Positions 4,363 to 60,710 are shown, counted from the first letter of the stretch. The stretch is 64,000 nt of DNA from Burkholderiales bacterium (GCA_030683105.1 JAUXMZ010000027.1:12316-76315), one strand, 5' to 3'. Numbers and translations: made by a program. Notes: a model not told the origin generated them from the sequence alone.

Positions 4363-4418
4363 GAGTTTGCCGGACTGAGCCCCGACAAACTCCTAAAATA
4401 AAAAACTTAAGAACGGTG

Positions 4419-5531
4419 CTAAGTCCGACAGACTGCTAGCGCGTAACGTCGCACCTTCGCCTCGTCGACTTCTATTCCCAGACCGGGTCCGGCAGGCACC
4501 TCGAAGTGTCCGGCGGCAAAGGGTATCGGTTCCTTCAGCACGTCGTCGGCAAGATATTGATTCGATATGCTCACGCCCCAATCCAGCGAAGGGACGGCCG
4601 CCGCCAGATGCAGCATGGCTGCGGCAGCAATGCCGGACTCGGCGATCTTGCAGGCAAGATTGACTTTCATGCCGAGCTGTTCGCACAGCAGCGCGGCATC
4701 ATAAACCGGTTTCATGCCGCCGAGCTTGATGGTCTTCAGGCTGCAACCGTGCGCGGCACCCGCATCGTGGTGCCGCCTCAGATCCTCCAGGCCGTGCAAC
4801 CCTTCATCAAAGCCGATCTTGATGCGGCTGGCCTTAGCCACCCTGGCCATGCCCTCGATATCGTCCCCGGCTACCGGTTGTTCGAAAAATTCCAGCGTGG
4901 TATCCGCCACGGCCTGCACATAGGTTATGGCTTGCGCCACCGACCAACCCTGATTGGCGTCGGCACAGATCAGTACGTTCCCGCCCAGGACATCGCACAC
5001 CTTGCGCGTGCGCTCCGCGTCCACCAGCGGTTCCGCAACAGCAACCTTGATCTTGTAGGCGACATAGCCTTCGGCTTTTCTGCGCACCGCCTCATCCACG
5101 TCGGTGCCGGTGCTGCCACCGCCTATCATGCGCAGCGCCGGGATGCGATCACGCCGCTTGCCGCCCAGCAACTCGTAAACAGGCTTCCCGGTGGCGCGGC
5201 CGAGCGCGTCGTGCAGCGCCATTTCGATGATTGATTTGGCGGACCGGTTGCCGTAGAGGTAACGGTCGGCGCGACCCATCACCGCAGCTATGTCATCGGC
5301 CGGCAGCCCCTCGAGGAAAGGCGCAAGATAGCGCACGGCCGCCACCATGCTTGCCACGGTTTCCCCGGTCATGGTGGGCGCCGAGGCGGCTTCTCCCCAG
5401 CCGACTACGCCACCATCGGTTTCAATCCGCACGAGCGCGTTGTTGGCGCGGCTGACCTCTTCCAGGGACATTTTGACGGGCTTCACCATCGGCAGGCTGA
5501 CAGCGATGGGTTCAACGTGTTTGATTTTCAT
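4419..5531 (-). CDS. Mandelate racemase/muconate lactonising enzyme family protein (enolase superfamily)
   Basis: 370 aa. N-terminal capping domain (VVGWGEA) and a barrel with the metal-ligand pattern (ICADANQGW, FEQP, FDEG). Confidence 0.8.
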   Translation of the reverse strand: MKIKHVEPIAVSLPMVKPVKMSLEEVSRANNALVRIETDGGVVGWGEAASAPTMTGETVASMVAAVRYLAPFLEGLPADDIAAVMGRADRYLYGNRSAKSIIEMALHDALGRATGKPVYELLGGKRRDRIPALRMIGGGSTGTDVDEAVRRKAEGYVAYKIKVAVAEPLVDAERTRKVCDVLGGNVLICADANQGWSVAQAITYVQAVADTTLEFFEQPVAGDDIEGMARVAKASRIKIGFDEGLHGLEDLRRHHDAGAAHGCSLKTIKLGGMKPVYDAALLCEQLGMKVNLACKIAESGIAAAAMLHLAAAVPSLDWGVSISNQYLADDVLKEPIPFAAGHFEVPAGPGLGIEVDEAKVRRYALAVCRT

Positions 5532-9812: not shown

Positions 9813-9953
9813 GTGATTAAGTAATTAAGTAATTAAGTGATTAAGTGATTGGCCAATCTAACGTCGCGCTCTGAGCGAATTAATCACTGAATCACTGAAT
9901 CACTGAATCACTCAATCACTCAATCACTCAATCACCGTATCACCGGGTCACTC
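9813..9953. repeat. Inverted short-period array, 8-nt units (5 x GTGATTAA-type, 29-nt core, 9 x AATCACTG-type)
   Basis: Read directly. Left arm 9813-9852, core 9853-9881, right arm 9882-9953. The arms are reverse complements. Confidence 0.9.
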
Positions 9954-12879: not shown

Positions 12880-13057
12880 ATTGATCCCCCGCCTGTGCCG
12901 TCAGACTCGTATCTTGAACCTAGGGTTCAAGGTGGTCACCTTTCGAGCCCATCAGGCGCTTCCCTAGGGACGCGCACACCGGCGCTTACTGAATCGGCAA
13001 CCAGACAGATACTATTGGTTCAAAGAGTTTAAAGCCTTAACAAACACCGCAGGGGAA
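12880..13057 (-). ncRNA. ssrS: 6S RNA
   Basis: Lies immediately downstream of zapA, as in E. coli. The minus strand contains CACCUUGAACCCUAGGUUCAAGAUAC (compare E. coli CACCUUGAACCAAGGGUUCAAGGGUUAC). The 5' UCCCCUGCGG and 3' GGCGGGGGA ends can close the rod. Ends are approximate. Confidence 0.75.
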
Positions 13058-13059
13058 AC

Positions 13060-13568: not shown

Positions 13569-13987
13569 GCGCGCACTATAGTTGGAAAAATCCTGTTAAG
13601 TCAACTGCTAACGAGAATTCTTGAATGTGATTTGATAGATTTGAGCGGTCAGTCATATGGCATATCAGTCAAGCCGGTAACACGCCCTCCGGGCTTCAAA
13701 TTATGGTCAAGTTGTAGTGATGCGGGAAATGCCGGGCAACCCCAATCCAGCTCAATGTCTGCGCTGCCAGCGGTGAGCACATAATTAAAATCATTTATAT
13801 TCAATAGAATAGCCATCTCTGGCTTGGCCTAATACGATGGACTGCCGGTGTGGGCCGCATTTGTCCGAAAACGGACAGGATCTGGTGTTTCGGGGCGAAG
13901 ATTCGGGTATTGGGCGCGCGTCAGGTAGAATTCACGATGTTTCAGCGCGTCCTTGAGTCCGAAGTGGGCGCTAACTGAAATGCGGTT

Positions 13988-14175
13988 TCAGGTGCCCGCG
14001 CCAAGTTCTATTGGCCGGGGTAAACGGGAAACAGGTAAGACAGCAGGATTCAGGATTCAGGATTCAGGAATCGGGAATTCCGCAGCTAAGCCTGTGCTGC
14101 CCCCGCAACGGTAAGCGAGCGTGGGCGCGCCATCAAGCCACTGGGTGTTTTCACCCGGGAAGGCGGCGCGTCATG
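13988..14175 (+). promoter_or_regulatory. Cobalamin (B12) riboswitch
   Basis: Conserved blocks GGTGCC...AAACGGGAAACAGGT...GCTGCCCCCGCAACGGTAA...B12 box AGCCACTGG...GGGAAGGC. Candidate P1 is CGCGCC (13996-14001) with GGCGCG (14164-14169). It lies upstream of a TonB-dependent receptor. Confidence 0.8.
14044..14079. repeat. Tandem heptamers (CAGGATT x3, CAGGAAT, CGGGAATT) inside the riboswitch variable region
   Basis: Read directly. The complement AATCCTG is one base short of the AATCACTG unit seen elsewhere. Confidence 0.85.
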
Positions 14176-14334
14176 TTCTCGCGAGCCCGTATACCGGCCT
14201 GAACCGAAAAGTGGTGGAAATGCTGCGGGGAGGCGGCGGTCCCGGTTTCGGTCGGTTCTCGTTCTTCCTTCCTTGGTGTTTCCTCGTTCGATTAATGCAC
14301 ATGCGGTGGGCATGTCTGACCAAAGGAAAACATC

Positions 14335-25455: not shown

Positions 25456-25570
25456 GTGATTCAGTAATTCAGTGATTAAGTGATTAAGTGATTAAGTGAT
25501 TGAGTGATTGAGTAAATCGTGAGGCATCTGCCAGCAGAAATCACTTGGTTACTTAATAACTCAATCACTA
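25456..25570. repeat. Inverted short-period array, 8-nt units (8 left, 19-nt core, 4 right)
   Basis: Left arm GTGATTCA GTAATTCA GTGATTAA x3 GTGATTGA x2 GTAAATCG. Right arm AATCACTT GGTTACTT AATAACTC AATCACTA. The last units overlap the stop of the 25561 gene. Confidence 0.9.
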
Positions 25571-26316: not shown

Positions 26317-26320
26317 AGCT

Positions 26321-26346
26321 GGTGAATGGTAAATGGGGAATGGTAA
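26321..26346. repeat. Heptamer array (GTGAATG GTAAATG GGGAATG GTAA)
   Basis: Read directly in the spacer downstream of the ligase gene. Inverted relative to the array at 27721-27752. Confidence 0.7.
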
Positions 26347-26371
26347 AAACAGCGCTTTGCACACTCCTTCC

Positions 26372-27592
26372 CTATTGCCTATTTCCTATTTCCTCAGATT
26401 TTACGTCACTATAAAGCAGGCCTGTGAGCCACGCGTACAGCAATCCCTCGGTGTGATCGAGCAACAGGGAATTGAACATGCAACCAATCACCATGGTCAG
26501 CACCAGGCCGCGTGCAAGTTGACATTCGAGCGGTGAGCTGAGCCGCGCTGCAAGACGCCATTGCAGCCAGAACAGCCATAACAGCACGGCAAGACCGGCG
26601 ATGCCCACCTGCGCCGCGATGTGCAGAAACTCGTTATGCGGGTTGCGCGTTTCAGTCTTGCCGGTGCCGCGCACCTTCTCGGCATAGCCCTGGGGAAAGC
26701 CGCCGGTGCCGACGCCGATGAGGGGATGATCGGCGATGATGCCCAGAGTGTTACGGTAGAACTCAAGACGGAATTCCGCCGAGTTTTGCGCCGGGCGGTC
26801 CGGTTTCCAGCCCTGTGTTTCCTTGATGATGGAGTTTGTCCGCTCCTGAAAGGGGCCGGGGACGATGGCGAGCACAGCCGCAAGCGCCGCAATTCCGGCG
26901 GCAGCCACGGCCAGCCCGCGCCAGCGACCGCGGTCGTAGCCCAGCAGCAGGGCCAGGCCGAGAAAAATGAAATAGCCTGTCGCGCCGTGCACCATCATGG
27001 TGAGGTTGATCACGGCGAGCAGCGCGAGCAGGGTCCACACCGCTTTGATTTTCAGCGACTTTGCTGTCAGCGCCAGCCAGGCGTAGAGGAAGGCGCCAAA
27101 GGCCATAAGGATGTTGTGCGTCAGATGCAGCTTGAATACGACGGGGTAATTCGCGTCGCTCACTATCAGCGGATTTTTCGGCACGATCCCGGCCTTGATC
27201 AGATACGACAGCGCCAGTACGAGCGCCAGCGATGCGGCAAATGCATGCAGCGCGTTGCGGCGCGTGGCGGCATCGCGGAACAGGAATAGGAAGATCGGGA
27301 TAAACAACAAGTCAGTGTATTTTCCCAGATAATGTGCAGCGTCACCGGCTGCGCTCACCCCATGCAATGTCCCGATAAGCAACAGCGCAAACAAGGCGAG
27401 GGCTGTCAGCGCCACGGGATTATTTAATGGTATCTGCAGTTTGAGGCTATACATGCCGCTGGCGAGCCAGCCCGCCAGGATTAGCACGAGCAATACATTG
27501 TCAAGTGCCACCGAAATGGGAATCGAGAAGCCCAGCGCGATGACCGACCAGCGCGCGACGTGATCGGCGTAACGGGCCAGGGCCCCTGGCAC
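26372..27592 (-). CDS. O-antigen ligase family (Wzy_C domain) membrane protein
   Basis: ~406 aa, ~11 TM segments with a large periplasmic loop (NPHNEFLHIAAQVG). GTG 27592 has a GGAAGAGG Shine-Dalgarno. The longer ATG 27715 start would translate two REP-like hairpins. Confidence 0.7.
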   Translation of the reverse strand: MPGALARYADHVARWSVIALGFSIPISVALDNVLLVLILAGWLASGMYSLKLQIPLNNPVALTALALFALLLIGTLHGVSAAGDAAHYLGKYTDLLFIPIFLFLFRDAATRRNALHAFAASLALVLALSYLIKAGIVPKNPLIVSDANYPVVFKLHLTHNILMAFGAFLYAWLALTAKSLKIKAVWTLLALLAVINLTMMVHGATGYFIFLGLALLLGYDRGRWRGLAVAAAGIAALAAVLAIVPGPFQERTNSIIKETQGWKPDRPAQNSAEFRLEFYRNTLGIIADHPLIGVGTGGFPQGYAEKVRGTGKTETRNPHNEFLHIAAQVGIAGLAVLLWLFWLQWRLAARLSSPLECQLARGLVLTMVIGCMFNSLLLDHTEGLLYAWLTGLLYSDVKSEEIGNRQ

Positions 27593-45256: not shown

Positions 45257-46168
45257 TTAAATTGCCGCACGCCGAGAGTTTGACTGGACGGCCGCCGATT
45301 CGTGAAGATATGAATACAGTTGTTCCGTCCACACCGGCATTTCGATACCGAAAACCCGCTTTATCTTCTCCTTGCTGGTTGCGGCGTTCAGCGGTCTTTT
45401 CGCGGGCAGCGGATACTCTGCATTTTTTATCGGGCGCACTGTGGCCCAGCCTTCTTTTTCGCCGGAAAGTTCTCGTGCGATCTCGACGATTTTCTTCGCG
45501 AAGTCGTAGCGCGAGGTATAGCCCGAGGCTGACAAGTGATAGATGCCCGTTTCTTCTTTGGTGCGCCGGACCTTGCCGAGCAGTTCCGCGCTGGTTTGGG
45601 CAAGCGCTCGCGCCCAGGATGGGGAACCGATCTGATCGTCGACCACGGCAAGCTCTTCCCGCTCTCGGGCGAGCTTAAGCACGGTCAGCACGAAGTTCGT
45701 GCCGCGACTGCTGTAAATCCAGCTCGCCCTCAGAATCAGGTGAGCGCAGCCGGTTGCAGCGATCGCCCACTCGCCCTCCAGCTTGGATTCTCCATAGGCA
45801 TTGAGCGGATTCGGCGCGTCGGCTTCGACATAGGGTGTGCCCTTGGTACCGTCAAAAACGTAGTCCGTGGAATAGTGGACGAGAAGCGCATTCAGGCGTT
45901 TCGCTTCCTCCGCCATCACTTCGGGCGCGACTGCGTTGATCTGCATGGCGAGATCGGGTTCTGATTCCGCCTTGTCTACCGCGGTATAGCCTGCGGCATT
46001 GACGATGATGTCGGGCGCAGCATCACGAATGGCCTGTCTGATTGAATCGGCATTGGTCAAATCCGTTTGCGTTCGATCGGGCGCGATAACGCGTCCGAGC
46101 GGCACAAGGCTGCGTTGTAGCTCCCAGCCGACCTGGCCGGTTTTGCCGAAGAGGAGAATGCGGGGCAT
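45257..46168 (-). CDS. rfbD: dTDP-4-dehydrorhamnose reductase
   Basis: ILLFGKTGQVGWEL, YGESKLEGE and STDYVFDG motifs. Confidence 0.9.
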   Translation of the reverse strand: MPRILLFGKTGQVGWELQRSLVPLGRVIAPDRTQTDLTNADSIRQAIRDAAPDIIVNAAGYTAVDKAESEPDLAMQINAVAPEVMAEEAKRLNALLVHYSTDYVFDGTKGTPYVEADAPNPLNAYGESKLEGEWAIAATGCAHLILRASWIYSSRGTNFVLTVLKLAREREELAVVDDQIGSPSWARALAQTSAELLGKVRRTKEETGIYHLSASGYTSRYDFAKKIVEIARELSGEKEGWATVRPIKNAEYPLPAKRPLNAATSKEKIKRVFGIEMPVWTEQLYSYLHESAAVQSNSRRAAI

Positions 46169-46213: not shown

Positions 46214-46759
46214 TCACGGGAAGACTTCGGAAGTCTTGAACGGCAGTCCGTTTCTATCCTTGTTGGACAGAGCTGGTTCGCCCTGGAGCGGCCAGGGGAT
46301 GGCCAGCTCCGGATCGTTCCAGGCGATGCAACGCTCGAACGCAGGCGCCCAGTAATCTGTTGTTTTGTATATGAATTCAGCGTAATCGCTGGTGACGAGA
46401 AAGCCGTGCGCAAAGCCGGGCGGGACCCATAACATGCGCTTGTTTTGATCCGACAGAACGGTGGCGGTCCACTTTCCGAAGGTGGGCGAGCTTCGGCGTA
46501 TGTCAACGGCCACGTCGTATACCTCTCCAACGGTCACGCGCACGAGCTTGCCCTGGGGTTGCTGGATCTGATAATGCAGGCCGCGCAGCACGTTTTTTGC
46601 CGAGCGCGAATGATTGTCCTGCACGAAACGAACATTGACTCCGGTATATTTGCTGAACTCGCGCTCGTTGTAGCTCTCGTAAAAAAAACCGCGTTCGTCG
46701 CCAAAGACTTTGGGTTCGAGGATCAGTGCCTCGGGGATGCTGGTCTGGATGACGTTCAT
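46214..46759 (-). CDS. rfbC: dTDP-4-dehydrorhamnose 3,5-epimerase
   Basis: FGDERGFFYESY...LRGLHYQ...GKLVRVTVGEVYDVAVDIR. Confidence 0.9.
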   Translation of the reverse strand: MNVIQTSIPEALILEPKVFGDERGFFYESYNEREFSKYTGVNVRFVQDNHSRSAKNVLRGLHYQIQQPQGKLVRVTVGEVYDVAVDIRRSSPTFGKWTATVLSDQNKRMLWVPPGFAHGFLVTSDYAEFIYKTTDYWAPAFERCIAWNDPELAIPWPLQGEPALSNKDRNGLPFKTSEVFP

Positions 46760-46766
46760 TGGAAGC

Positions 46767-46839
46767 CGTTGATCGTGAATCGTGAATCGTTAACCGGGAA
46801 CCTCGTGAGCCGTAAATCGTGAATGGTGAATCGTAAGTC
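46767..46839. repeat. Heptamer array (GTGAATC-type units), one arm flanking four-helix-bundle gene 1
   Basis: GATC GTGAATC GTGAATC GTTAACC ... GTGAGCC GTAAATC GTGAATG GTGAATC GTAAGTC. Confidence 0.85.
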
Positions 46840-46844
46840 ATTTC

Positions 46845-47195
46845 TCATATCTTGACGTTTCTATGCAGCCCGGAGAGTAATTGTCCTACGCGATCAAGGT
46901 GGGTGAATATCTCGTGCTCCAGCGACATATATTCTAACTCTGCTGCGATAAGCATCTGCGTTTCCAATTCGCTGAGAGAGCCCTTGGAGATGCTAATGAA
47001 CTGAGCAAATTCTTTCTTCGACGATCGTGCAGCGCCTTCCGCGAGGGTGCTCGGCATCGATATTGCGGCACGCCGCATCTGGGCCGTCAGTCCATATAGC
47101 GCCTCTTTGGAAAACGCTTGTGTGACTAGGCAGGTCATCTTCACAAGGCGCATGGCTTGCTGCCATGCATCTAGATTTTGATGTGGCCTTGCCAT
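46845..47195 (-). CDS. Four-helix-bundle protein (23S rRNA intervening-sequence protein family), copy 1
   Basis: Start taken at MARPHQNLDAWQQAM. LAEGAAR...KGSLSELETQ...LLSGLHRNV are family hallmarks. 116 aa. Confidence 0.85.
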   Translation of the reverse strand: MARPHQNLDAWQQAMRLVKMTCLVTQAFSKEALYGLTAQMRRAAISMPSTLAEGAARSSKKEFAQFISISKGSLSELETQMLIAAELEYMSLEHEIFTHLDRVGQLLSGLHRNVKI

Positions 47196-47229
47196 TAACG
47201 ATTCACGAATTACGATTAACGAATCACGG
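47196..47229. repeat. Heptamer array, inverted partner of 46767-46839
   Basis: The plus strand TAACGATTCACGAATTACGATTAACGAATCACGG is the complement of GTGATTC GTTAATC GTAATTC GTGAATC GTTA. It abuts the copy-1 ATG and contains the rfbA stop. Confidence 0.85.
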
Positions 47230-48096
47230 TTCTTGAAGAATATTGCGCAGGTAATGCGCATAGGGATTGTTGTTGCTCATCGAGGCGGCGATTGTTTCCA
47301 GCTCGCCGGCGGTGATATATCCCATGCGGTAGGCGATTTCCTCGGGGCAGGCGATTTTCAGGCCCTGGCGTTTTTCGATGGTCTCGATGAATAGCGATGC
47401 TTCGAGCAAGGAGGCATGAGTGCCAGTATCGAGCCAGGCGACGCCGCGGCCCAGCAGGACGACATTCAGCTCGCCGCGGCGCAGATACTCATTGCTGATG
47501 TCGGTGATCTCGAGTTCGCCGCGCGCGGAAGGTTTCAGGGCGCGGGCGATGTCGATGACTTTGTTGTCATAGACGAAGAATCCAGTGACCGCAAATTTTG
47601 ATTTGGGGTGCTTGGGTTTCTCCTCGATCGAGATCACTTTCCGGTTCTTGTCGAACTCGACGACGCCGGAGCGCTCCGGGTCCTGCACCTGATAGGCGAA
47701 GATCGTCGCACCTGTCGTCTTTTCGGTTGCGGCCTGCATGTCGGTGGTCAGGTCATGGCCGTAAAAGATGTTGTCGCCAAGGATCAGTGTGCACGGCCCA
47801 TCTCCGATAAAATCGGCGCCGATTGTAAAGGCTTGTGGCAAGCCTTTGGGCTCCTGCTGCACCGCGTAGGACAGATTAAGGCCCCAGCGGCGCCCGTCGC
47901 CGAGAAGTTGTTCGAAGCGCGGCGTATCCTGCGGCGTCGAGATCAGCAGGATATCGCGGATGCCAGCGAGCATCAAAGTCGACAGCGGATAGTAAATCAT
48001 CGGCTTGTCGTAGACTGGCAGCAGCTGCTTGGAGACGACCTGGGTCGCGGGGTAGAGGCGGGTGCCGGAGCCGCCGGCGAGGATGATGCCTTTCAT
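47224..48096 (-). CDS. rfbA: Glucose-1-phosphate thymidylyltransferase
   Basis: [18 protein letters not shown]...[16 protein letters not shown]. Confidence 0.92.
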
Positions 48097-48104
48097 GGTT
48101 TTGG

Positions 48105-48141
48105 GTGATTAAGTGATTGGGTGATGGAGTGATGGGGTGGT
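48105..48141. repeat. 8-nt array (GTGATTAA GTGATTGG GTGATGGA GTGATGGG GTGGT), one arm flanking four-helix-bundle gene 2
   Basis: Read directly. Confidence 0.85.
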
Positions 48142-48492
48142 TTACTGGGTTACGTTTCTGTGAAGGCCGGAAAGCAATCGCGATACCTCCTCCACTAACT
48201 GGAAAACCCCGTGCTTCTGGTCAAGATAACCCAGTTCCACTGAAATCAATAGTTGTGTTTCCAATTCGCTTAATGAACCTTTGGCGATACTCAGGAATTG
48301 TGCGAACTTTTTCCGTCCCGTTCTGGCCGCGCCTTCAGCGAGGTTGCTGGGAATGGAAATCGCCGCGCGTTGCATCTGAGCGGTGAGGCCGTATATTTCT
48401 TCACGAGGAAACGTTCGTGTGGTTTCATAAATGCTTTTGACCAATACCATCGCAGCCTTCCACGCTTCAAGATTGTAATGTGGTCTGGTCAC
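48142..48492 (-). CDS. Four-helix-bundle protein (23S rRNA intervening-sequence protein family), copy 2
   Basis: GTG start. 71/116 residues identical to copy 1 by hand alignment, with the same hallmarks. Confidence 0.85.
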   Translation of the reverse strand: MTRPHYNLEAWKAAMVLVKSIYETTRTFPREEIYGLTAQMQRAAISIPSNLAEGAARTGRKKFAQFLSIAKGSLSELETQLLISVELGYLDQKHGVFQLVEEVSRLLSGLHRNVTQ

Positions 48493-48504
48493 GCGGCGTT
48501 TTCC

Positions 48505-48530
48505 TAATCACTCAATCACTTAATTACTTT
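48505..48530. repeat. 8-nt array (AATCACTC AATCACTT AATTACTT), inverted partner of 48105-48141
   Basis: Read directly. Confidence 0.85.
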
Positions 48531-48535
48531 ATGAC

Positions 48536-49594
48536 CTATTGCCTGGCCGAATAATGCGTTTCGATCCATTTCCGGTAATCTCCCGTTTGAACAGACGCCA
48601 CCCAGTCCATGTGATCGAAGTACCATTGCACGGTTTTGCGCAGCCCGGTATCGAAGGCCTCGCGCGGTTTCCAGCCGAGTTCTGACTCAATTTTCGCCGT
48701 GTCGATCGCGTAGCGCCGATCGTGGCCCGGACGGTCCTTCACGTAAGAGATCAGTTTGGAATGCGGCGCCGAGTTTGCCCGCTGTCCGTCGATTATGGTG
48801 CAGATCGTCCTGACCACATCAAGATTGGTCTTCTCGCTGTTGCCGCCGATATTGTATGTTTCCCCCAGGCGGCCCTGTTGCAGCACCAGCCGGATCGCCG
48901 TGCAGTGATCGCCGACATAAAGCCAGTCGCGCACATTGAGGCCGTCGCCATAGACCGGCAATGGCTTGCCGTGGACGGCGTTCAGGATGACCAGCGGGAT
49001 CAGCTTTTCGGGAAACTGCAGCGGACCGTAGTTGTTGGAGCAATTGGTGGTGATGGTCGGCAGACCGTACGTGTGGTGATAAGCACGCACCAGGTGGTCG
49101 GATCCCGCCTTGGATGCTGCATAAGGGCTGTTGGGCGCGTAAGGGGTGGTTTCCACGAAGGCCGGATCGTCACGCCCGAGCGAGCCATAGACTTCGTCGG
49201 TCGAGACGTGCAGGAAGCGGAAGCGGCTTTTTGCCGGTTCCGCAAGCTGCGACCAGTAGGCGCGGGCTTCTTCCAGCAGGCTGAAGGTGCCGACGACGTT
49301 GGTCTGCACAAATTCAGCGGGTCCGTGGATCGAGCGGTCAACATGGCTTTCCGCCGCGAAATGGACGATAGCTTCAGGCTGGTGATGCTCGAGCAACCGG
49401 GCGACGAGCGCACGGTCGCAGATGTCGCCTTTTACGAAAATGTGCCGCGCATCGTCCTTCAGGCTTGCCAGATTGCCGGGGTTGCCGGCATAGGTGAGCT
49501 TGTCGAGAGTCACGACCGGCGAGGCTTCGGCTGCGATCCAGTCCAGGACAAAATTCGAACCAATGAATCCCGCTCCGCCGGTAACCAGAATCAC
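48536..49594 (-). CDS. rfbB: dTDP-glucose 4,6-dehydratase
   Basis: [23 protein letters not shown] and [11 protein letters not shown] motifs. Confidence 0.92.
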
Positions 49595-51997: not shown

Positions 51998-52100
51998 GTG
52001 ATTGAGTAATTAAGTAATTGAGTGATTGAGTGATTTTGGCAGTCACAACAGCAGCCTAGGCTGCTGTTAATCACCCAGTCACCCAATCACTTAATCACTG
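51998..52100. repeat. Inverted short-period array, 8-nt units (5 left, 31-nt core, 4 right) between convergent waaA and tolC
   Basis: GTGATTGA GTAATTAA GTAATTGA GTGATTGA GTGATTTT ... AATCACCC AGTCACCC AATCACTT AATCACTG. The core holds a perfect 22-nt palindrome, AACAGCAGCCTAGGCTGCTGTT (52047-52068). Confidence 0.9.
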
Positions 52101-52109
52101 CTTTACGCC

Positions 52110-53455: not shown

Positions 53456-53538
53456 AGTGATGGAGTGATGGAGTGATTGAGTGATCAGGCATTAGATGGG
53501 TCTCGCTAAGCATTATTTACTAAATCACTAAATCACTA
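53456..53538. repeat. Inverted short-period array, 8-nt units (4 left, 28-nt core, ~3 right)
   Basis: AGTGATGG x2 AGTGATTG AGTGAT ... TATTTACT A AATCACTA AATCACTA. The last unit contains the pcm stop codon. Confidence 0.85.
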
Positions 53539-54204
53539 GAATACAAACCGTTCCGGCTGCGGCGCGTTTTTGAGCGACGTAATGCAGGTCTCAAACAGGA
53601 CGACCGAATTATAGACCCCGGCCGAGACACAGGTGATCAACCGCGCTTCCATGACCGGCGACTCTCCAACCACCGCGAGCAGCCGCCCGCCTGGCTTGAG
53701 GTTTTTCTGAAACGCTTCCGGCAACACCGGCACCGATCCGGTCAGCACGATCACATCATAGGGCCCGTGTTTGTCCCAGCCACGGGCCGCGTCGCCGGTT
53801 TCGAGCGTGACGTTGATAATGCCGTGTGCCGCGAGCTTGGCGGCAGCCGACTGAGTGAACTCGGAAATGATGTCTACACTGTAAACGTGGTTTCCCAGGC
53901 TGGCGAGCAGCGCCGTCATATAGCCGCTGCCGGTGCCGACTTCGAGTATGCGGTCGGAACTCTCGAGGCCAAGTTCCTGCAGCATGCGCGCTTCGATCTT
54001 GGGCGGGAGCATCTTTTCGCCATGGCCCAGCGGAATTTCCATGTCGGAGAAAGCCAGCGCGCGGTACTGCTCGGGCACGTAATCTTCGCGATGTACGCGG
54101 AGCAGCAGGTCCAGCACCTGCTGGTCGAGAACATCCCATGGCCTGATTTGCTGTTCGACCATATTGAAGCGTGCGCGCTCAAAGTCCAATTGGGGGGTGG
54201 TCAT
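53536..54204 (-). CDS. pcm: Protein-L-isoaspartate O-methyltransferase family protein
   Basis: ILEVGTGSGYMTALLA motif I. 222 aa with PCMT-like spacing. Confidence 0.75.
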   Translation of the reverse strand: MTTPQLDFERARFNMVEQQIRPWDVLDQQVLDLLLRVHREDYVPEQYRALAFSDMEIPLGHGEKMLPPKIEARMLQELGLESSDRILEVGTGSGYMTALLASLGNHVYSVDIISEFTQSAAAKLAAHGIINVTLETGDAARGWDKHGPYDVIVLTGSVPVLPEAFQKNLKPGGRLLAVVGESPVMEARLITCVSAGVYNSVVLFETCITSLKNAPQPERFVF

Positions 54205-54329
54205 ATGAGTCGGTTCCGGAAAGTAATAATTGGGTTAAGCGGCCGGGGGTGAGGGAGGTGCGGATATCTACTCCGGGCCTCGGCGCGTTACTGCTTGCAA
54301 TTATCCCACAATTGGATTAGTTTTTGCGT

Positions 54330-56381
<2,052 letters not shown>

Positions 56382-58046: not shown

Positions 58047-58241
58047 GTGATTAGGTGATTGAGTGATTGAGTGATTAAAACGCATCTTGAAATCCGCTTT
58101 CACCAACACCCTCCACGCCGTCACGGAGCGAGGGTGTATGTTTGAGACGCGCTCTAAGCAATTCGCAAGAAACTACTGGCTTGGCAGTTGCCTAATCACT
58201 GAATCACTGAATCACTGAATCACTGAATCACTGAATCACTC
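58047..58241. repeat. Inverted short-period array, 8-nt units (4 left, 115-nt core, 6 right)
   Basis: GTGATTAG GTGATTGA x2 GTGATTAA ... AATCACTG x5 AATCACTC, ending 4 nt before the ATG of the ATPase gene. Confidence 0.9.
58083..58124 (-). pseudogene. Possible decayed 5' fragment of a four-helix-bundle gene
   Basis: The minus strand CGCTCC GTG ACG GCG TGG AGG GTG TTG GTG AAA aligns to copy 2, CGCCGC GTG ACC [21 nt] GCG TGG AAG [9 nt] GTA TTG GTC AAA. 23 of 27 aligned coding nt are identical after two in-frame gaps. Confidence 0.35.
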
Positions 58242-58245
58242 AAAC

Positions 58246-58995
58246 ATGGCCGAACCCCTGATCGTCACCCGCAGCCTCGCCAAGGTGTACCGCATGGAAA
58301 GTTACACCGTGACAGCGCTGCAGGGAGTGTCGGTCGAAATCGGGGCGGGAGAATTCGTGGCGGTGATGGGTCCGTCCGGTTCAGGCAAATCAACCTTCAT
58401 GAATCTGCTGGGCTGCCTCGATACGCCTTCGAGCGGCGAATATTGTCTGGCCGGCGAGAAAGCTTCCGAGCTTTCGGGCGACGCGCTCGCGGCTGTACGC
58501 AATCGCAGAATCGGCTTCGTGTTCCAGAATTTCAATCTGCTGCCCCGCACGTCAGCGCTGGAGAACGTCGAACTGCCGCTGCTCTACGCGCACATCTCGG
58601 CTCAGGAGCGGCGCAGCCGGGCGCTTGCCAAGCTTGCCGATGTCGGACTGGCTGAGCGCGCAGACCACCACCCCGCACAACTCTCCGGCGGGCAGCAACA
58701 GCGGGTGGCGATTGCGCGCGCGCTGGTCAACAATCCGGTGTTGATCCTGGCCGACGAGCCGACCGGCGCACTTGATTCCCGGACCAGTTGCGAAGTCATG
58801 GGCCTGCTGCAGCAATTGAACCGTCAGGGCATGACCGTGGTGCTGGTGACTCACGAACACGACATCGCGGCATTTGCCTCGCGCGTGGTGAACTTCCGAG
58901 ATGGCCGCGTGGTGGATGATCAGCTGGTCGCCGATCCGGTCGATGCGCAGCGGATGCTGCGCGAGCTGGATGAGAGCGCGGAGGTGGCAGTATGA
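58246..58995 (+). CDS. MacB/LolD-type ABC transporter ATP-binding protein
   Basis: [24 protein letters not shown] and [11 protein letters not shown] motifs. Confidence 0.88.
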
Positions 58996-59383: not shown

Positions 59384-60616
59384 ATGACCTGGCTCGCCAG
59401 CATGCGCATCGCCTTGCGGGCGCTGCGTGTGAACAAGCTGCGCAGCATGCTGACCATGCTCGGCATCATCATCGGTGTGGGCGCCGTGATCACCATGATC
59501 GCCGTGGGCGCCGGCGCGCAGGCCCAGATCGAAGAGCAGATCAAGAGCCTGGGGTCCAACCTCATCATCGTGCTCCCGGGTTCGGTCACCTCGGGCGGCG
59601 TGCGCATGGGCGCGGGCTCGCGTGCTTCTCTGACGGAAGACGACGGTTACGCCTTGCAGCGCGAGATTGCGGAGGTGCAGGCAGCGGCGCCCAACCTGCG
59701 CGGCACCGGTCAGGTGGTGGCCGGGAGTGCCAACTGGTCCACCGTGTTTTACGGCGTGACACCGGAGTACTTCGAGGCACGCAATTGGGTGATCGCCAGC
59801 GGCAAGGGATTCGATGCTGCTGATTTAAGCGGATCGGGAAAGGTGGTGCTGCTCGGCGAGACCGTGGCCCGCAATCTGTTCGGCGACACCGATCCCGTAG
59901 GACAGACCGTGCGCGTGCGCAAGGTGCCGATGCAGGTCATTGGCACGCTCGAGCGCAAAGGGCAGAGCATGATGGGCCAGGACCAGGATGACGTCATCCT
60001 GATGCCCATCTCCACCGCCCGCAACCGCGTGCTGGGCGGCAACACCGCGAAACAGCGCGCAGTGGGCTCAATTTCGGTCAAGATACGCGAGGGCGCCAAC
60101 ATGGCCGAAACGGAGAGTGAGATCAGGCAACTGCTGCGTCAGCGCCACCGGCTGCAGTTTGGCCAGGAGGATGACTTCAGCCTGCGCAACTTGTCGGAGA
60201 TTCTGGGCGCGCGCGAGGAGTCGAGCCGCATCATGACGCTGCTGCTGGCTGCGGTGGCTTCAGTCTCGCTGCTGGTGGGCGGCATCGGCATCATGAACAT
60301 CATGCTGGTTTCAGTTACCGAGCGCACGCGCGAGATCGGCCTCAGGATGGCGGTGGGCGCGCGCGGGCGGGACATCCTTTCCCAGTTCCTGGTGGAAGCG
60401 GTGACGCTGGCGCTCATCGGCGGCCTGTGCGGCATCCTGCTGGGTGTAGCGGGCTCGTATGCGATCGGACACTTTGCCGGTTGGCGCATCCTGATCAATA
60501 TCCATGCCGTCGTGCTTGCGGTCGGCTTTGCTGCCGTCATCGGCGTCTTCTTCGGTTTTTATCCGGCACGCAAGGCTTCGCGCCTGCTGCCGATAGAAGC
60601 GTTGCGTTATGAGTGA
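59384..60616 (+). CDS. MacB-type ABC transporter permease (FtsX fold with periplasmic domain)
   Basis: Start taken at MTWLASMRIALRALRVNKLRSMLTMLGIIIGV. The C-terminal FtsX region contains ERTREIGLRMAVGA. Confidence 0.88.
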   Translation: MTWLASMRIALRALRVNKLRSMLTMLGIIIGVGAVITMIAVGAGAQAQIEEQIKSLGSNLIIVLPGSVTSGGVRMGAGSRASLTEDDGYALQREIAEVQAAAPNLRGTGQVVAGSANWSTVFYGVTPEYFEARNWVIASGKGFDAADLSGSGKVVLLGETVARNLFGDTDPVGQTVRVRKVPMQVIGTLERKGQSMMGQDQDDVILMPISTARNRVLGGNTAKQRAVGSISVKIREGANMAETESEIRQLLRQRHRLQFGQEDDFSLRNLSEILGAREESSRIMTLLLAAVASVSLLVGGIGIMNIMLVSVTERTREIGLRMAVGARGRDILSQFLVEAVTLALIGGLCGILLGVAGSYAIGHFAGWRILINIHAVVLAVGFAAVIGVFFGFYPARKASRLLPIEALRYE

Positions 60617-60710
60617 TTCGGTGATTAAGTAATTAAGTGATTGAGTGAACCACCGCCCGCGGCGCGAGGGTTTGGGTCAATCACCCAATCACTGAATCAC
60701 TAAATCACTG
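60613..60710. repeat. Inverted short-period array, 8-nt units (5 left, 26-nt core, 4 right)
   Basis: GTGATTCG GTGATTAA GTAATTAA GTGATTGA GTGAACCA ... AATCACCC AATCACTG AATCACTA AATCACTG. The first unit contains the permease stop codon. Confidence 0.9.

Follow-up and report, generated by a model that had tools for sequence, protein, structure and literature searches.

The stretch of DNA analysed here, 64,000 nucleotides from a Burkholderiales bacterium (hereafter the window), carries on its minus strand an rfb operon in which two small open reading frames, ORF1 and ORF2, are interposed, in the order rfbB, ORF2, rfbA, ORF1, rfbC and rfbD (Table 1). The two ORFs are co-oriented 116-aa paralogues with 70 identical residues in a gap-free alignment; counting both start codons as methionine raises this to 71, which is the figure given in a preliminary description of this DNA (71/116); identity is 61% for the proteins and 217/351 for the nucleotide sequences. 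Each ORF is bracketed by inverted short-period arrays, which Tandem Repeats Finder (TRF) places where the same description had put them, and which are of two different unit types within the one operon, with a period of 8 around ORF2 and of 7 around ORF1. An ORF together with its two arrays, or arms, is referred to below as a cassette, and 5' and 3' are used in the operon sense.

Table 1. Genes, cassette arms and ORF-less arrays of the window, the operon being listed in its direction of transcription
Feature	Position	Strand	Evidence
rfbB, dTDP-glucose 4,6-dehydratase, operon gene 1	48536..49594	-	TIGR01181, 500.9 bits (cut-off 365); ORF list
Cassette 2 5' arm (operon sense), (GTGATTRR)n, about 3-4 units	48505..48535	-	TRF 48505-48529, period 8; pattern matches 48506-48535
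ORF2, 116-aa four-helix-bundle protein, GTG start	48142..48492	-	PF05635/TIGR02436; PDB 2GSC, E=1.2e-29; purifying selection
Cassette 2 3' arm, (AATCACYY)n on the minus strand	48097..48141	-	TRF 48101-48139, period 8/16; pattern matches; duplex with 5' arm, 0/200 shuffles as good
rfbA, glucose-1-phosphate thymidylyltransferase	47224..48096	-	TIGR01207, 479.5 bits
Cassette 1 5' arm, (GTGAATC)-type heptamers, about 4.7 units	47196..47232	-	TRF 47196-47232, period 7/14; sequence
ORF1, 116-aa four-helix-bundle paralogue, ATG start	46845..47195	-	PF05635/TIGR02436; intact in the window, internally deleted in L001 and L002
Cassette 1 3' arm, (GATTCAC)-type heptamers, degenerate middle	46767..46839	-	TRF 46772-46834, period 7, 8.7 copies; 0/200 shuffles as good
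rfbC, dTDP-4-dehydrorhamnose 3,5-epimerase	46214..46759	-	TIGR01221, 272.9 bits
rfbD, dTDP-4-dehydrorhamnose reductase	45257..46168	-	TIGR01214, 326.9 bits
ORF-less inverted octamer hairpin that takes up an intergenic spacer, (GTRATTAA)n ... (AATCACTS)n	9813..9951	.	TRF, pattern; duplex z -7.4 (plus), -12.2 (minus)
Solo octamer array lacking a proper partner arm, GTGATTRA, 7.2 copies	25456..25517	.	TRF, pattern; no significant duplex
ORF-less inverted octamer hairpin between convergent genes	51998..52106	.	TRF, pattern, duplex test
ORF-less inverted octamer hairpin	53457..53544	.	TRF, pattern, duplex test
ORF-less inverted octamer arrays, 115-nt loop	58047..58247	.	TRF, pattern, duplex test; fill the spacer from stop codon (58041) to next start (58246)
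ORF-less inverted octamer hairpin	60613..60708	.	TRF, pattern, duplex test

In cassette 2, the 5' arm abuts the rfbB stop codon, a Shine-Dalgarno-like AGGA that is kept in the related loci L001 and L002 lies between this arm and the GTG start of the ORF, and the 3' arm ends 0-4 nt from the rfbA ATG. At the other junction, the TGA stop of rfbA falls within the first unit of the cassette 1 array, the ORF1 ATG directly adjoins the 5' arm, and the 3' arm ends 7 nt from the rfbC ATG. The genes downstream of the cassettes start a few nucleotides past the 3' arm, without a Shine-Dalgarno motif, in the window as well as in L001 and L002. No terminator-like site coincides with the arms, the terminator count being below the shuffle mean, and neither promoters nor terminators are in excess over shuffles; the 3' arms moreover run into the next start codon. 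Promoters and intrinsic terminators, the latter being GC-rich hairpins with a trailing U-run, were discarded as explanations. CRISPR arrays were likewise rejected, since the units are 7-8 nt long and arranged head-to-tail without spacers, versus repeats of at least 20 nt with unique spacers of similar length. Rfam detects no rRNA in the window and no known RNA family at the arms, and a PADLOC search returned no match to a defence system, which was accordingly set aside.

The arms had been proposed to be complementary and to loop out each ORF on a long stem of the operon RNA. The example then given, AAGUGAUUGAGUGAU with AUCACCCAAUCACUU, is present in the sequence and pairs at 14 of 15 positions when counted by hand, and none of 200 dinucleotide shuffles reaches the observed arm-arm duplex energy, in either cassette and on either strand (z -4.8 to -6.7). 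The minus-strand MFE fold of each whole cassette does close with an arm-arm stem; the z-scores of these folds are modest (-1.57 and -2.71), most of the fold energy coming from the ORF interior. What found no support is the assignment of the stem to the operon RNA strand specifically. Were the operon mRNA the level at which the stem is selected, the sense strand should be the one favoured by G·U pairs, but over 75 loci the sense strand is better in 38 and the antisense strand in 36 (Wilcoxon p 0.92), and in the window it is the plus strand, antisense to the operon, that pairs better in both cassettes (-42.0 versus -35.9 and -39.2 versus -24.7 kcal/mol). This leaves the DNA, as well as a transcript of either strand, as a level at which the structure could act. 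The duplexfold energies computed for 110-nt flanks proved too noisy for a good separation of real and control pairs, only 28 of 75 loci beating every same-locus control, and for this reason unit-level comparisons were relied on instead.

The encoded protein and its bracket across relatives

The attribution of both ORFs to the four-helix-bundle family first found within 23S rRNA intervening sequences (IVSs) was borne out by HMM searches, in which they score 105.3 and 120.9 bits with PF05635 (cut-off 33.8), the sole Pfam family matched by cassette genes, and 96.2 and 114 bits with TIGR02436 (cut-off 24). At least 7,984 proteins are found at E <= 1e-3 and at least 5,791 at E <= 1e-20. A structure has been solved for this family, and to our knowledge no function is known for it except in diversity-generating retroelements (DGRs). 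The closest solved relative is the four-helix bundle XCC0516 (PDB 2GSC, five chains), to chain A of which query residues 3-92 align (E=1.2e-29), and which has been described as a homopentamer (PMC4990558). No catalytic motif can be recognised in the 116-aa helical bundle. The dN/dS of ORF2 is 0.04-0.17 (0.12-0.17 versus L001 and L002) and, judged by these ratios, the gene is under purifying selection and its protein functional. In cassette 1, L001 has other sequence in place of the middle of the ORF and L002 has lost the C-terminal half, both keeping the arms; this decay with persisting arms means that ORF-less hairpins can arise from cassettes. Array copy numbers also differ among the window, L001 and L002.

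The overall comparison covered about 160 other loci. The bracket itself was followed in a sample of the family, namely the best 80 relatives, closest to ORF2 (52-89% identity), together with one Xanthomonas case. A period-7 or period-8 array lies at most 150 nt upstream of the gene in 59 of the 75 evaluable relatives, downstream of it in 64 and on both sides in 50; on one side, no array can be detected in roughly one quarter to one third of the loci. Brackets were confirmed by eye in L001, L002, L008, L015 and L162. The bracketing arrays are always convergent, and their unit differs by lineage, both arms invariably changing in step and the GTGA core being retained; the 3' array begins a median of 7.5 nt past the ORF stop. 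Both arms share their period in 51 of 52 loci, their copy numbers correlate (rho 0.42, p 0.002), and the median numbers of units per arm are 4.65 and 4.7, i.e., about five. Thirty unit types occur among the relatives' arm pairs, and identity between the 5' unit and the reverse complement of the 3' unit is 0.815 within a locus, versus 0.642 across loci and 0.452 in direct orientation. Switches between periods 7 and 8 amount to 4 changes on the protein tree versus 14.7 expected by permutation; the repeat unit type tracks the protein tree. Such covariation of protein and unit could stem from simple linkage within the cassette, without binding.

GTGA is found in 60% of units, versus 7.9% expected. 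Within 104 arrays, the G at position 1 varies in 1.5-2.4% of units and the A at position 4 in 0.8-3.2%, compared with 19-27% at the last positions; near-invariant G1 and A4 beside free positions point to sequence-specific recognition in addition to pairing. Given that GTGAT resembles extended Shine-Dalgarno pairing with the 16S 3' tail, Shine-Dalgarno or anti-Shine-Dalgarno mimicry was considered and rejected as a general explanation: 52 unit types bind the tail no better than permutations of their own letters (median rank 0.44, Wilcoxon p 0.36), GGTGAT-type units alone standing out.

Beyond the sugar operons, the Xanthomonas XCC0516 gene, whose product is the protein of PDB 2GSC, lies at the accB-accC junction between GGGAATC arrays, and a family member has been reported between cmr3 and cmr2 in Pleurocapsa (PMC3936711). 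The comparison of the about 160 loci as a whole suggests that the array bracket is a regular, and apparently undescribed, feature of this gene family, and connects the family with the unexplained short repeats dispersed in the same genomes; in the literature available as full text, subscription journals being outside this coverage, no paper was found that ties the family to flanking arrays or to rfb or gmd.

Arrays without genes and the history of the cassettes

The arrays had been presented as belonging to the cassettes, and this proved too narrow. The octamer pattern has 46 matches in the window, versus 0.03 expected, and of seven octamer-array sites one contains an ORF and six do not (Table 1). 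The hairpin at 51998..52106 keeps its position in L001 (1108-1234), with different copy numbers. The ORF-less loops of the window were rejected as ORF remnants, since tblastn matches are limited to the two intact copies, and no similarity shared between loops was apparent by eye. Cassette-type arrays are scattered without ORFs through the genomes of carriers and nearly absent from non-carrier loci: the flanks of carriers contain 131 strong arrays in 473 kb, whereas a control set of 80 rfbA loci picked by RfbA similarity contains a single one in 349 kb, which adjoins the only four-helix-bundle gene of the set. ORF-less array pairs are convergent in 19 cases and divergent in one.

The cassettes are not placed at random: deoxyhexose operons host 51 of 79 relatives, mostly directly 3' of the 4,6-dehydratase gene (rfbB-rfbA or gmd-fcl junctions), an enrichment that may partly reflect the choice of loci by ORF2 similarity. 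The neighbours are oriented (+,+) relative to the cassette gene in 37 loci and (-,-) in one. The presence/absence polymorphism anticipated in the preliminary description is found: a cassette occurs in one of the 80 rfbA loci sampled by RfbA similarity, most rfbA-rfbC junctions being overlapping ATGA stop/start codons. Compact junctions are the rule in non-carriers, and the cassettes are insertions relative to this compact form of the operon. Cassette 2 is neither a recent nor a private insertion, however, as a relative is present at the same rfbB-rfbA junction in 26 of the 108 rfbA loci on the RfbA tree. The carrier state changes nine times on this tree, versus 23.5 by permutation. Strict co-inheritance of cassette and operon was rejected because RfbA and four-helix-bundle distances correlate weakly (Pearson 0.46, Spearman 0.13), and the protein-plus-array type is incongruent with RfbA; one unit type is present at both the rfbB-rfbA and the gmd-fcl junctions, and each of these junctions holds many unit types. 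In the course of evolution, cassettes have undergone gain, loss, exchange and degradation, and we infer their mobility from phylogenetic incongruence alone. No transposase, as an insertion sequence would have, and no recent insertion polymorphism between near-identical strains were seen; target-site duplications, as a MITE would show, were not obvious at the junctions inspected, where the repetitive arms make a short one difficult to discern.

Possible nature of the cassettes

On balance, we lean towards the view that each ORF and its arms form a promoterless, IVS-like and evolutionarily mobile cassette, of the same kind as the ORF-bearing 23S rRNA IVSs and hosted by an mRNA operon, whose arms would serve both as a transcript stem and as putative binding sites of the encoded pentamer. 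The family, the pairing of the arms and the likeness to IVSs all speak for the original proposal of an IVS-like, possibly mobile cassette; that arrays also occur without ORFs, that cassette 2 is not private and that neither strand is preferred call for it to be revised. The unit would be a PF05635 gene set between convergent arrays, of which the 5' one reads (GTGAnnn[n])n and the 3' one is the reverse complement, in the spacer of co-transcribed genes. On the operon transcript, the arms are predicted to form a long imperfect stem, with the ORF in its loop and the upstream stop once more next to the downstream start, and this stem could be an RNase III substrate by analogy with the Coxiella rRNA IVS. 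With the ORF looped out, stop and start rejoined and the stem cut, a cassette could occupy an rRNA helix or a translationally coupled junction with little harm. The arrays would probably be the cognate sites of the homopentamer, with one unit per protomer and about five per arm, and the ORF-less hairpins may be non-autonomous derivatives or further targets of the cassette protein, paralleling the REP/RAYT system. More tentatively, and as a possibility that we regard as somewhat doubtful, PF05635 pentamers may be the missing trans-acting partners of bacterial heptamer and octamer arrays at large, the gene-plus-arms cassette being the autonomous form of a new class of hairpin element that settles at co-transcribed junctions and the ORF-less hairpins its derivatives or regulon. 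Each protomer would then read one GTGAnnn unit, and the scheme would also cover the Xanthomonas GGGAATC repeats, the Geobacter sites and perhaps cyanobacterial STRR and IVS stems.

Several other readings bear on the same data. It is unlikely, in our estimate, that the protein is a domesticated regulator rather than part of a mobile element, i.e., a TRAP-like repeat-binding RNA (or DNA) protein that tunes deoxyhexose nucleotide-sugar operons and other array-marked junctions, competing with hairpin formation, autoregulating inside the operon and being inherited with it. The location of 51 of 79 relatives in rfb or gmd/fcl operons, for the most part immediately downstream of the dehydratase gene, would fit such a role, as would the clustering of carriers on the RfbA tree, the purifying selection on ORF2 and the conserved AGGA before its start, the downstream genes that begin just past the 3' arm without a Shine-Dalgarno motif, and the periodic conserved core of the arrays. 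Family members nevertheless reside in unrelated hosts (accB-accC, cas operons, 23S rRNA), copy 1 decays in close relatives, 79 of the 80 rfbA operons sampled by RfbA similarity lack a cassette, the cassette type is incongruent with RfbA, and the sugar-operon enrichment may owe something to sampling by ORF2 similarity. Still less probable is the absence of any functional link, with arrays being independent genome-wide intergenic hairpin repeats of the REP, STRR or Xanthomonas GGGAATC kind, in the loops of which four-helix-bundle genes land or survive; the arrays might then serve to stabilise mRNA or to insulate genes on either side, or might adopt non-B DNA structures. ORF-less arrays do outnumber ORF-containing ones (six of seven octamer sites in the window, and the 131 arrays of the relatives' flanks), and arrays have been described on their own in Xanthomonas (PMC4692102) and Geobacter (PMC2700814). 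Against this, the unit type follows the protein phylogeny and not the host alone, two unit types flanking paralogues in one operon; the arrays abut start and stop codons, with the 3' array a few nucleotides past the stop; 59-64 of the 75 genes have a bracketing array; arrays are almost absent from loci of genomes that lack the gene; and the decay intermediates show that cassettes can yield ORF-less hairpins.

A reading to which we give very little weight is that G-quadruplex or i-motif structures of DNA or RNA, which have been proposed for the Xanthomonas repeats, are the means by which the arrays act, the neighbouring gene being irrelevant. The GGGAATC unit forms G-quadruplexes in vitro (PMC4692102), and GGGAATC/GGGAATG-type units occur in L009, L019, L021 and L024 as well as around the Xanthomonas gene, but a GGG run is present in only 38% of unit types, the GTGATTRR and GTGAATC units of the window cannot form G-quadruplexes, and complementary, convergent arms are left unexplained. 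Hardly credible at all is a function as Avd accessory proteins of a DGR, a role that had already been discounted in the preliminary description. The ORFs show distant homology to such proteins (PHROG 3206, "Avd protein of DGR", 19.9 and 29.1 bits; NF033474, 21.6 and 23.7 bits), with scores far below curated cut-offs (80 for NF033474; 16.2 bits versus 40 for PF22296). Apart from array-to-array matches, positions 36000-58000 contain no direct repeat of at least 40 nt that could represent a TR/VR pair; the ORFs neighbour rfb genes, and the 80 relatives have sugar-nucleotide genes as their neighbours, the frequent neighbour families including no reverse transcriptase.

The cassette reading ties together two orphans by rules that can be checked, namely convergent arrays, a clade-specific unit with a GTGA core, about five units per arm and a site between co-transcribed genes. 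PF05635/TIGR02436, a very large family, recurs as a "guilt-by-association" match in cas loci, DGR neighbourhoods and rRNA. The heptamer and octamer arrays of Xanthomonas, Geobacter and cyanobacteria have been catalogued independently of one another, and the roles suggested for them, such as G-quadruplexes or regulator sites, are speculative. Should the link prove functional, rRNA IVSs gain a wider family, and it becomes understandable that such a gene lives within an rRNA helix or at a junction with translational coupling; if, in addition, the pentamers are the trans-acting partners of the arrays, a function would be obtained at once for an orphan family of thousands and for an orphan class of repeats. 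X. campestris accB-XCC0516-accC offers a tractable system, with genetics and a protein, XCC0516, that has been purified and crystallised. For annotation, array-flanked PF05635 genes in operons should not be taken as functional partners of their neighbours.

Relation to known systems

In the REP/RAYT system, a single-copy gene is flanked by inverted short repeats that are also dispersed intergenically, and each gene clade has its own repeat type. RAYTs are HUH/Y1 (IS200/IS605-like) transposase homologues, and REPs are single palindromes of 20-40 nt. The cassettes resemble REP/REPIN-RAYT in that their gene is flanked by an inverted repeat dispersed in the same genome, with clade-specific types, and differ in that the protein is a 116-aa helical bundle without a nuclease motif, the repeats are tandem 7- or 8-mers, and mobility is here putative. 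TRAP, a ring-shaped homo-oligomer, reads (G/U)AG repeat RNA with one repeat per subunit, in competition with an alternative hairpin; a ring homo-oligomer on tandem short repeats would be alike in function by analogy only, as the folds are unrelated and binding by the four-helix bundle is hypothetical. Avd is a four-helix bundle of similar size, pentameric, that binds nucleic acid and reverse transcriptase. Its homology to the present family has been noted (PMC10053308); unlike at Avd loci, there is no reverse transcriptase or TR/VR pair near the cassettes, and curated Avd models fail.

Short tandem arrays offer a further parallel. Cyanobacterial STRR are heptamer repeats. In Xanthomonas, GGGAATC repeats occupy 186 sites in Xcc and form 70 convergent pairs (PMC4692102), and paired octamers have been described as "global regulator binding sites" in Geobacter metallireducens (PMC2700814). 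As in the window, these are intergenic arrays of about 4-14 tandem 7- or 8-mers, often in convergent pairs at variable distance, with copy numbers that vary between relatives; the Geobacter and STRR repeats are likened by description only. Neither published account links the repeats to PF05635 genes, whereas here the gene of 2GSC is found inside a GGGAATC pair.

The ORF-bearing IVSs of 23S rRNA remain the nearest counterpart. The cassettes differ from them in being hosted by a protein-coding operon, and not by helix 25 or 45. RNase III excision has been demonstrated for rRNA IVSs and is suggested for the cassettes of the window by analogy. The Coxiella ORF is reported to be decaying and probably untranslated, whereas ORF2 is under purifying selection and is preceded by a Shine-Dalgarno-like motif. 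In the helix 45 IVS of Coxiella burnetii, a same-family ORF is carried on a stem whose 5' arm contains tandem GACAGAT heptamers, strain-variable in number, at which RNase III cuts (PMC4990558); this unit lacks the GTGA core of the window. The likeness is nonetheless closer than the preliminary description had it, since the 5' arm of the Coxiella stem too contains tandem heptamers: in Coxiella and Leptospira, as in the cassettes, an ORF of the same family is enclosed by a long stem of terminal inverted repeats, shares the orientation of the host transcript and depends on that transcript, and the stem arm, in Coxiella as in the period-7 and period-8 arms described here, consists of tandem repeats of variable copy number.

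Two four-helix-bundle genes in the rfb operon and their arrays

The minus-strand operon of the window runs rfbB-ORF2-rfbA-ORF1-rfbC-rfbD, and its four rfb genes all match NCBIfam equivalog models far over cut-off. Both interposed ORFs score above the cut-offs of PF05635 (33.8 bits) and TIGR02436 (24 bits), models of the 23S rRNA intervening sequence (IVS) protein family, which bears out the family assignment of the preliminary description; these four-helix-bundle proteins are called 4HB below. They align without gaps with 70 identical residues, or the 71 of 116 counted earlier by hand if both start codons are read as Met, and their nucleotide identity is 217/351. The nearest solved structure is that of XCC0516 from Xanthomonas campestris (2GSC, E=1.2e-29, five chains), and the nearest solved relative is a pentamer (PMC4990558).

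As previously described, each ORF lies between inverted arrays, which Tandem Repeats Finder recovers at four places (see table). Read along the operon, each ORF has (GTGAATC)n or (GTGATTRR)n on its 5' side and the reverse-complement type on its 3' side. The spacers are taken up by the arrays: the opening unit of cassette 1 contains the stop codon of rfbA, the ATG of ORF1 is directly 3' of its 5' array, and 0-7 nt separate the 3' arms from the start codons of rfbA and rfbC. The 14 of 15 paired positions given earlier as an example hold on a hand check, none of 200 dinucleotide shuffles matches the arm-arm duplex energy on either strand (z -4.8 to -6.7), and the arm-arm stem closes both cassettes in whole-cassette MFE folds.

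Coordinates of arrays, ORFs and RNA elements in the window and in loci of other genomes that carry 4HB genes (L handles)
Locus	Position	Strand	Feature	Details
Window	9813-9951		ORF-less paired octamer site	
Window	12882-13058	minus	6S RNA gene	RF00013, 77 bits
Window	13973-14216		Cobalamin riboswitch aptamer match	RF00174, 97.8 bits
Window	14044-14069		Perfect heptamers, (CAGGATT)x3.7	Within the aptamer match
Window	25456-25517		Solo octamer array, GTGATTRA x7.2	Just past start region of a minus-strand gene
Window	26320-26394		Weaker heptamer pair, (TGGTAAA/TGGGGAA)n ... (CCTATTT)n	Spacer of two minus-strand genes
Window	46772-46834		Cassette 1 3' array	Period 7
Window	46845-47195	minus	ORF1	116 aa; PF05635 105.3 bits, TIGR02436 96.2 bits
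Window	47196-47232		Cassette 1 5' array	Period 7
Window	48101-48139		Cassette 2 3' array	Period 8
Window	48142-48492	minus	ORF2	116 aa; PF05635 120.9 bits, TIGR02436 114 bits
Window	48505-48529		Cassette 2 5' array	Period 8
Window	51998-52106		ORF-less paired octamer site	Between waaA and outer-membrane factor gene
Window	53457-53544		ORF-less paired octamer site	
Window	54328-54428	plus	TPP riboswitch	RF00059, 66.6 bits; upstream of ORF 54468-56381
Window	58047-58247		ORF-less paired octamer site	
Window	60613-60708		ORF-less paired octamer site	
L001	1108-1234		Hairpin at the place equivalent to window 51998-52106	Copy numbers differ
L001	7395-7525, 7620-7670		Small GC-rich palindromic element	
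L002	5325-5345		Small GC-rich palindromic element	
L003	3047-3173, 6604-6702, 7347-7406		Arrays/cassettes	
L015 (Sulfuricella)	4395-4415		Beginning of rfbA frame	Just past 3' arm
L059	Whole locus		Heptamer arrays	Near-saturated, up to 16 copies
L072	321-2845		Two 4HB genes	One at gmd|fcl, second at rfbB|rfbA
L162 (X. campestris, GCA_035012225.1)	4929-5372		2GSC-type gene	accB|accC, co-oriented
L162	6858-7327		97-nt tandem repeat, 4.9 copies, 90% identity	Just downstream of accC; unrelated to heptamers
L162	8760-8789		ORF-less GGGAATC x4.3 array	

Recurrence, exchange and decay of the cassettes

One genome per species was scanned, and the best 80 loci (52-89% identity to ORF2) come from Burkholderiales, Sulfuricella, Thiobacillus, Competibacteraceae, Zetaproteobacteria, Geobacteraceae, Desulfobulbales, Nitrospira, Balneolaceae and Methylotuvimicrobium. 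Among 75 evaluable loci, a period-7/8 array lies within 150 nt of the 4HB gene upstream in 59, downstream in 64 and on both sides in 50. The arms were compared in 52 two-array loci, with edges handled slightly differently from the 75-locus count: they comprise 30 unit types, the two arms have equal periods in 51, and the identity between the 5' unit and the reverse-complemented 3' unit is 0.815 within a locus; it falls to 0.642 between different loci and to 0.452 when units are compared in direct orientation. G-rich 5' arms occur in 47/50 loci and C-rich 3' arms in 48/50; copy numbers of the two arms are correlated (rho 0.42, p 0.002), with medians of 4.65 (5') and 4.7 (3') units, and the 3' array starts a median of 7.5 nt after the stop codon. 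The brackets of L008 and L015 were also inspected by eye. A control of 80 rfbA loci (349 kb), for which RfbA similarity was the sole selection criterion, has a single 4HB gene with a single strong array beside it; the flanks of the carriers (473 kb) contain 131 strong arrays besides those at the focal gene, often built of its unit. ORF-less pairs in these flanks are convergent, i.e., with the G-rich array first on both strands, in 19 cases versus 1 divergent. Some rfb/gmd clusters (L003, L072, L059) have multiple cassettes or ORF-less arrays in successive spacers.

Nearly every cassette shares the orientation of one neighbour or of both (of both in 37 loci; both are opposed in 1), and no excess of promoters or terminators was found around those of the window. 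Deoxyhexose operons host 51/79 ORF2 relatives, an enrichment partly conditioned by the choice of loci close to ORF2. The rfbB|rfbA junction accounts for 22 relatives plus 7 partial and gmd|fcl for 12 plus 6 partial, so that in most cases the gene immediately 5' of the cassette encodes an NDP-sugar 4,6-dehydratase; single relatives occur at rfbA|rfbC, at rfbC|rfbD, upstream of gmd, and downstream of rfbC without further match. Most rfb operons lack the cassette, and there the rfbB-rfbA spacer is typically 9-77 nt and rfbA and rfbC overlap by ATGA. The cassettes are thus insertions into compact junctions, which are probably translationally coupled. Of note, rfbA has no Shine-Dalgarno motif 3' of the cassettes in the window, L001 and L002, and the rfbA frame of L015 has no canonical ATG, GTG or TTG directly before the conserved KGIILAGG; where rfbA lies 3' of a cassette, its initiation may rely on the hairpin or on coupling.

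An RfbA tree of 108 loci groups the 26 carriers in clusters but still needs 9 changes, versus 23.5 expected by permutation. RfbA and 4HB distances agree poorly (Pearson 0.46, Spearman 0.13): L003-L006 combine an RfbA identity of 67-68% with a 4HB identity of 72-78% and the window's own octamers, and L021, L031 and L038 combine 74-77% with 60-65% and heptamers. In addition, the unit GTGATTGG is found at both rfbB|rfbA and gmd|fcl, and each junction has many unit types. Protein and arms therefore travel together and are exchanged or re-acquired at the same junctions.

The window shares its operon with L001 (GCA_038903415.1; RfbA 91% identical) and L002 (a Burkholderiales MAG; RfbA 81%). Copy 2, the cassette of ORF2, is intact in both, with 87-91% amino acid identity and a conserved AGGA motif 5' of the start codon; its arrays have 4.9 and 7 units in L001 versus about 3-5 in the window, and their variable positions differ too. 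The dN/dS values, 0.12-0.17 among these three loci and 0.036 for the 4HB genes of another close pair (L004/L005), indicate purifying selection on the protein. Copy 1 is a pseudogene in L001 and L002 through two independent internal deletions, a GC-rich palindromic insert replacing the middle in L001 and the C-terminal half being gone in L002. Its heptamer arms are kept in both, a step by which a cassette with its ORF can turn directly into a hairpin without one. A second kind of repeat, a small GC-rich palindromic element (…ccctcctcttcaaggggaggg… / cacccccttgaggggtg / cccctcaaagggg), is inserted in the decaying copy 1 and in its 3' arm in these two loci; other small repeats seem to be drawn to the arrays or to their loops. 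In Geobacter, IS110/IS481 elements lie at fixed distances from paired octamer sites (Aklujkar et al., PMC2700814).

ORF-less arrays and constraint on the units

The octamer pattern GTGATTNN x3, allowing up to 3 mismatches, has 46 matches in the window versus 0.03 expected; they fall at seven sites, six of which have no ORF. All paired octamer sites of the window are convergent, and its ORF-less hairpins occupy entire intergenic spacers. Octamer arrays are hence not peculiar to 4HB cassettes, and the earlier reading as IVS-like cassettes is supported in part: complementary arms do enclose a family ORF, but most octamer sites do without one.

The solo array is followed ~25 nt downstream by a single AATCAC unit and may be a hairpin minus one arm. 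The weaker heptamer pair is of the GGGAAT type seen around the 4HB genes of L009, L021 and L024; the window has no cognate 4HB gene, and the pairing of its arms is not significant (12/200 shuffles as good, plus strand). The CAGGATT heptamers presumably lie in a variable region of the cobalamin aptamer.

Array unit types form clades on the 4HB protein tree: the heptamers GTGAGGR, GTGAGCG, GTGAGAC, GTGATGG, GTAATGA and GGGAATG; GTGAATC, including ORF1 and L022; the GTGATTRR octamers, including ORF2 and its relatives; and GCGATTKG. Switching between periods 7 and 8 takes 4 changes on this tree versus 14.7 by permutation. GTGA is present in 60% of units, versus 7.9% of random units of equal composition. 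When units were compared with the consensus of their own array (104 arrays), deviations amounted to 1.5-2.4% at G1, 0.8-3.2% at A4, 8-20% at position 3 and 19-27% at the last positions. Such position-dependent variability is not predicted from pairing alone and suggests that the sequence is read by something with a 7-8-nt period.

Candidate mechanism and known systems

Taken together, the 4HB gene and its convergent arrays form a promoterless cassette inserted between co-transcribed genes; its arms co-vary, its protein is under selection, and the genomes that carry it also have ORF-less relatives of it. In the transcript, the arms would pair as a stem, looping out the ORF and bringing the flanking stop and start codons back together; by analogy with IVSs, RNase III might cut this stem. 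The encoded protein, presumably a pentamer, may bind the arrays as putative binding sites, one unit per subunit, a reading that would explain the periodic core, the approximately five units per arm, the covariation of protein and unit, and the dispersed ORF-less copies. In the simplest regulatory version, binding of the protein would compete with folding of the hairpin in a TRAP-like manner. The wobble pairs of the arms show no strand bias, so the arms may act on the DNA or on either of the two transcripts.

Several other roles were considered. A DGR role, previously regarded as unsupported, is rejected: both curated models of Avd, the DGR accessory protein, stay below cut-off on ORF1 and ORF2 (NF033474, 22-24 bits versus 80; PF22296, 16 versus 40). 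The terminator reading of the arms is rejected for lack of a terminator excess in the window. Also rejected were a defence system, a known Rfam family for the arms, G-quadruplex formation as the general role of the arrays, and Shine-Dalgarno or anti-Shine-Dalgarno mimicry. Neither transposase nor target duplication was seen at the cassettes.

The literature search (full text, subscription journals outside its scope) found no work linking the PF05635 family to flanking tandem arrays, to dispersed heptamer/octamer repeats or to rfb/gmd junctions. Neighbourhood statistics have led to PF05635 genes being classed as 'CRISPR-associated' and 'DGR/immune-associated' (PMC3936711, PMC10910872, PMC10053308), and 18 family members within cas loci, e.g., at cmr3|cmr2, were read as a CRISPR association (Zhang and Ye, PMC3936711). 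For the cas-locus cases at least, the cmr3|cmr2 gene among them, the intra-operon habit of the cassettes offers a simpler account.

The 2GSC-type gene of X. campestris is itself flanked by (CGGGAAT)x4.4 and (CCCATTC)x4.3, a convergent GGGAATC-type heptamer pair. By frame reading, residues 1-8 of the crystallised protein (MENRESAK) are array-encoded and the annotated 109-aa call starts too late. These arrays are the GGGAATC repeats of Xanthomonas described as quadruplex-forming and reported at 186 sites in Xcc, with 70 convergent pairs, in a study that does not mention the gene (Rehm et al., PMC4692102). For Geobacter metallireducens, 24 and 21 pairs of inverted sites made of tandem octamers, variably spaced, have been listed as sites of an unknown global regulator (Aklujkar et al., PMC2700814). 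In the Coxiella 23S IVS, a family ORF lies in the stem, whose 5' arm consists of tandem heptamers in strain-variable number, and RNase III cleaves at this heptamer stem (PMC4990558). We rate the 4HB cassette as an element of the IVS type whose hosts are mRNA operons and whose repeat bracket recurs; the genomic pattern of cassettes plus dispersed arrays runs parallel to that of REP/RAYT, and the relation of the cassette to the genome-wide arrays is rated as REP/RAYT-like.
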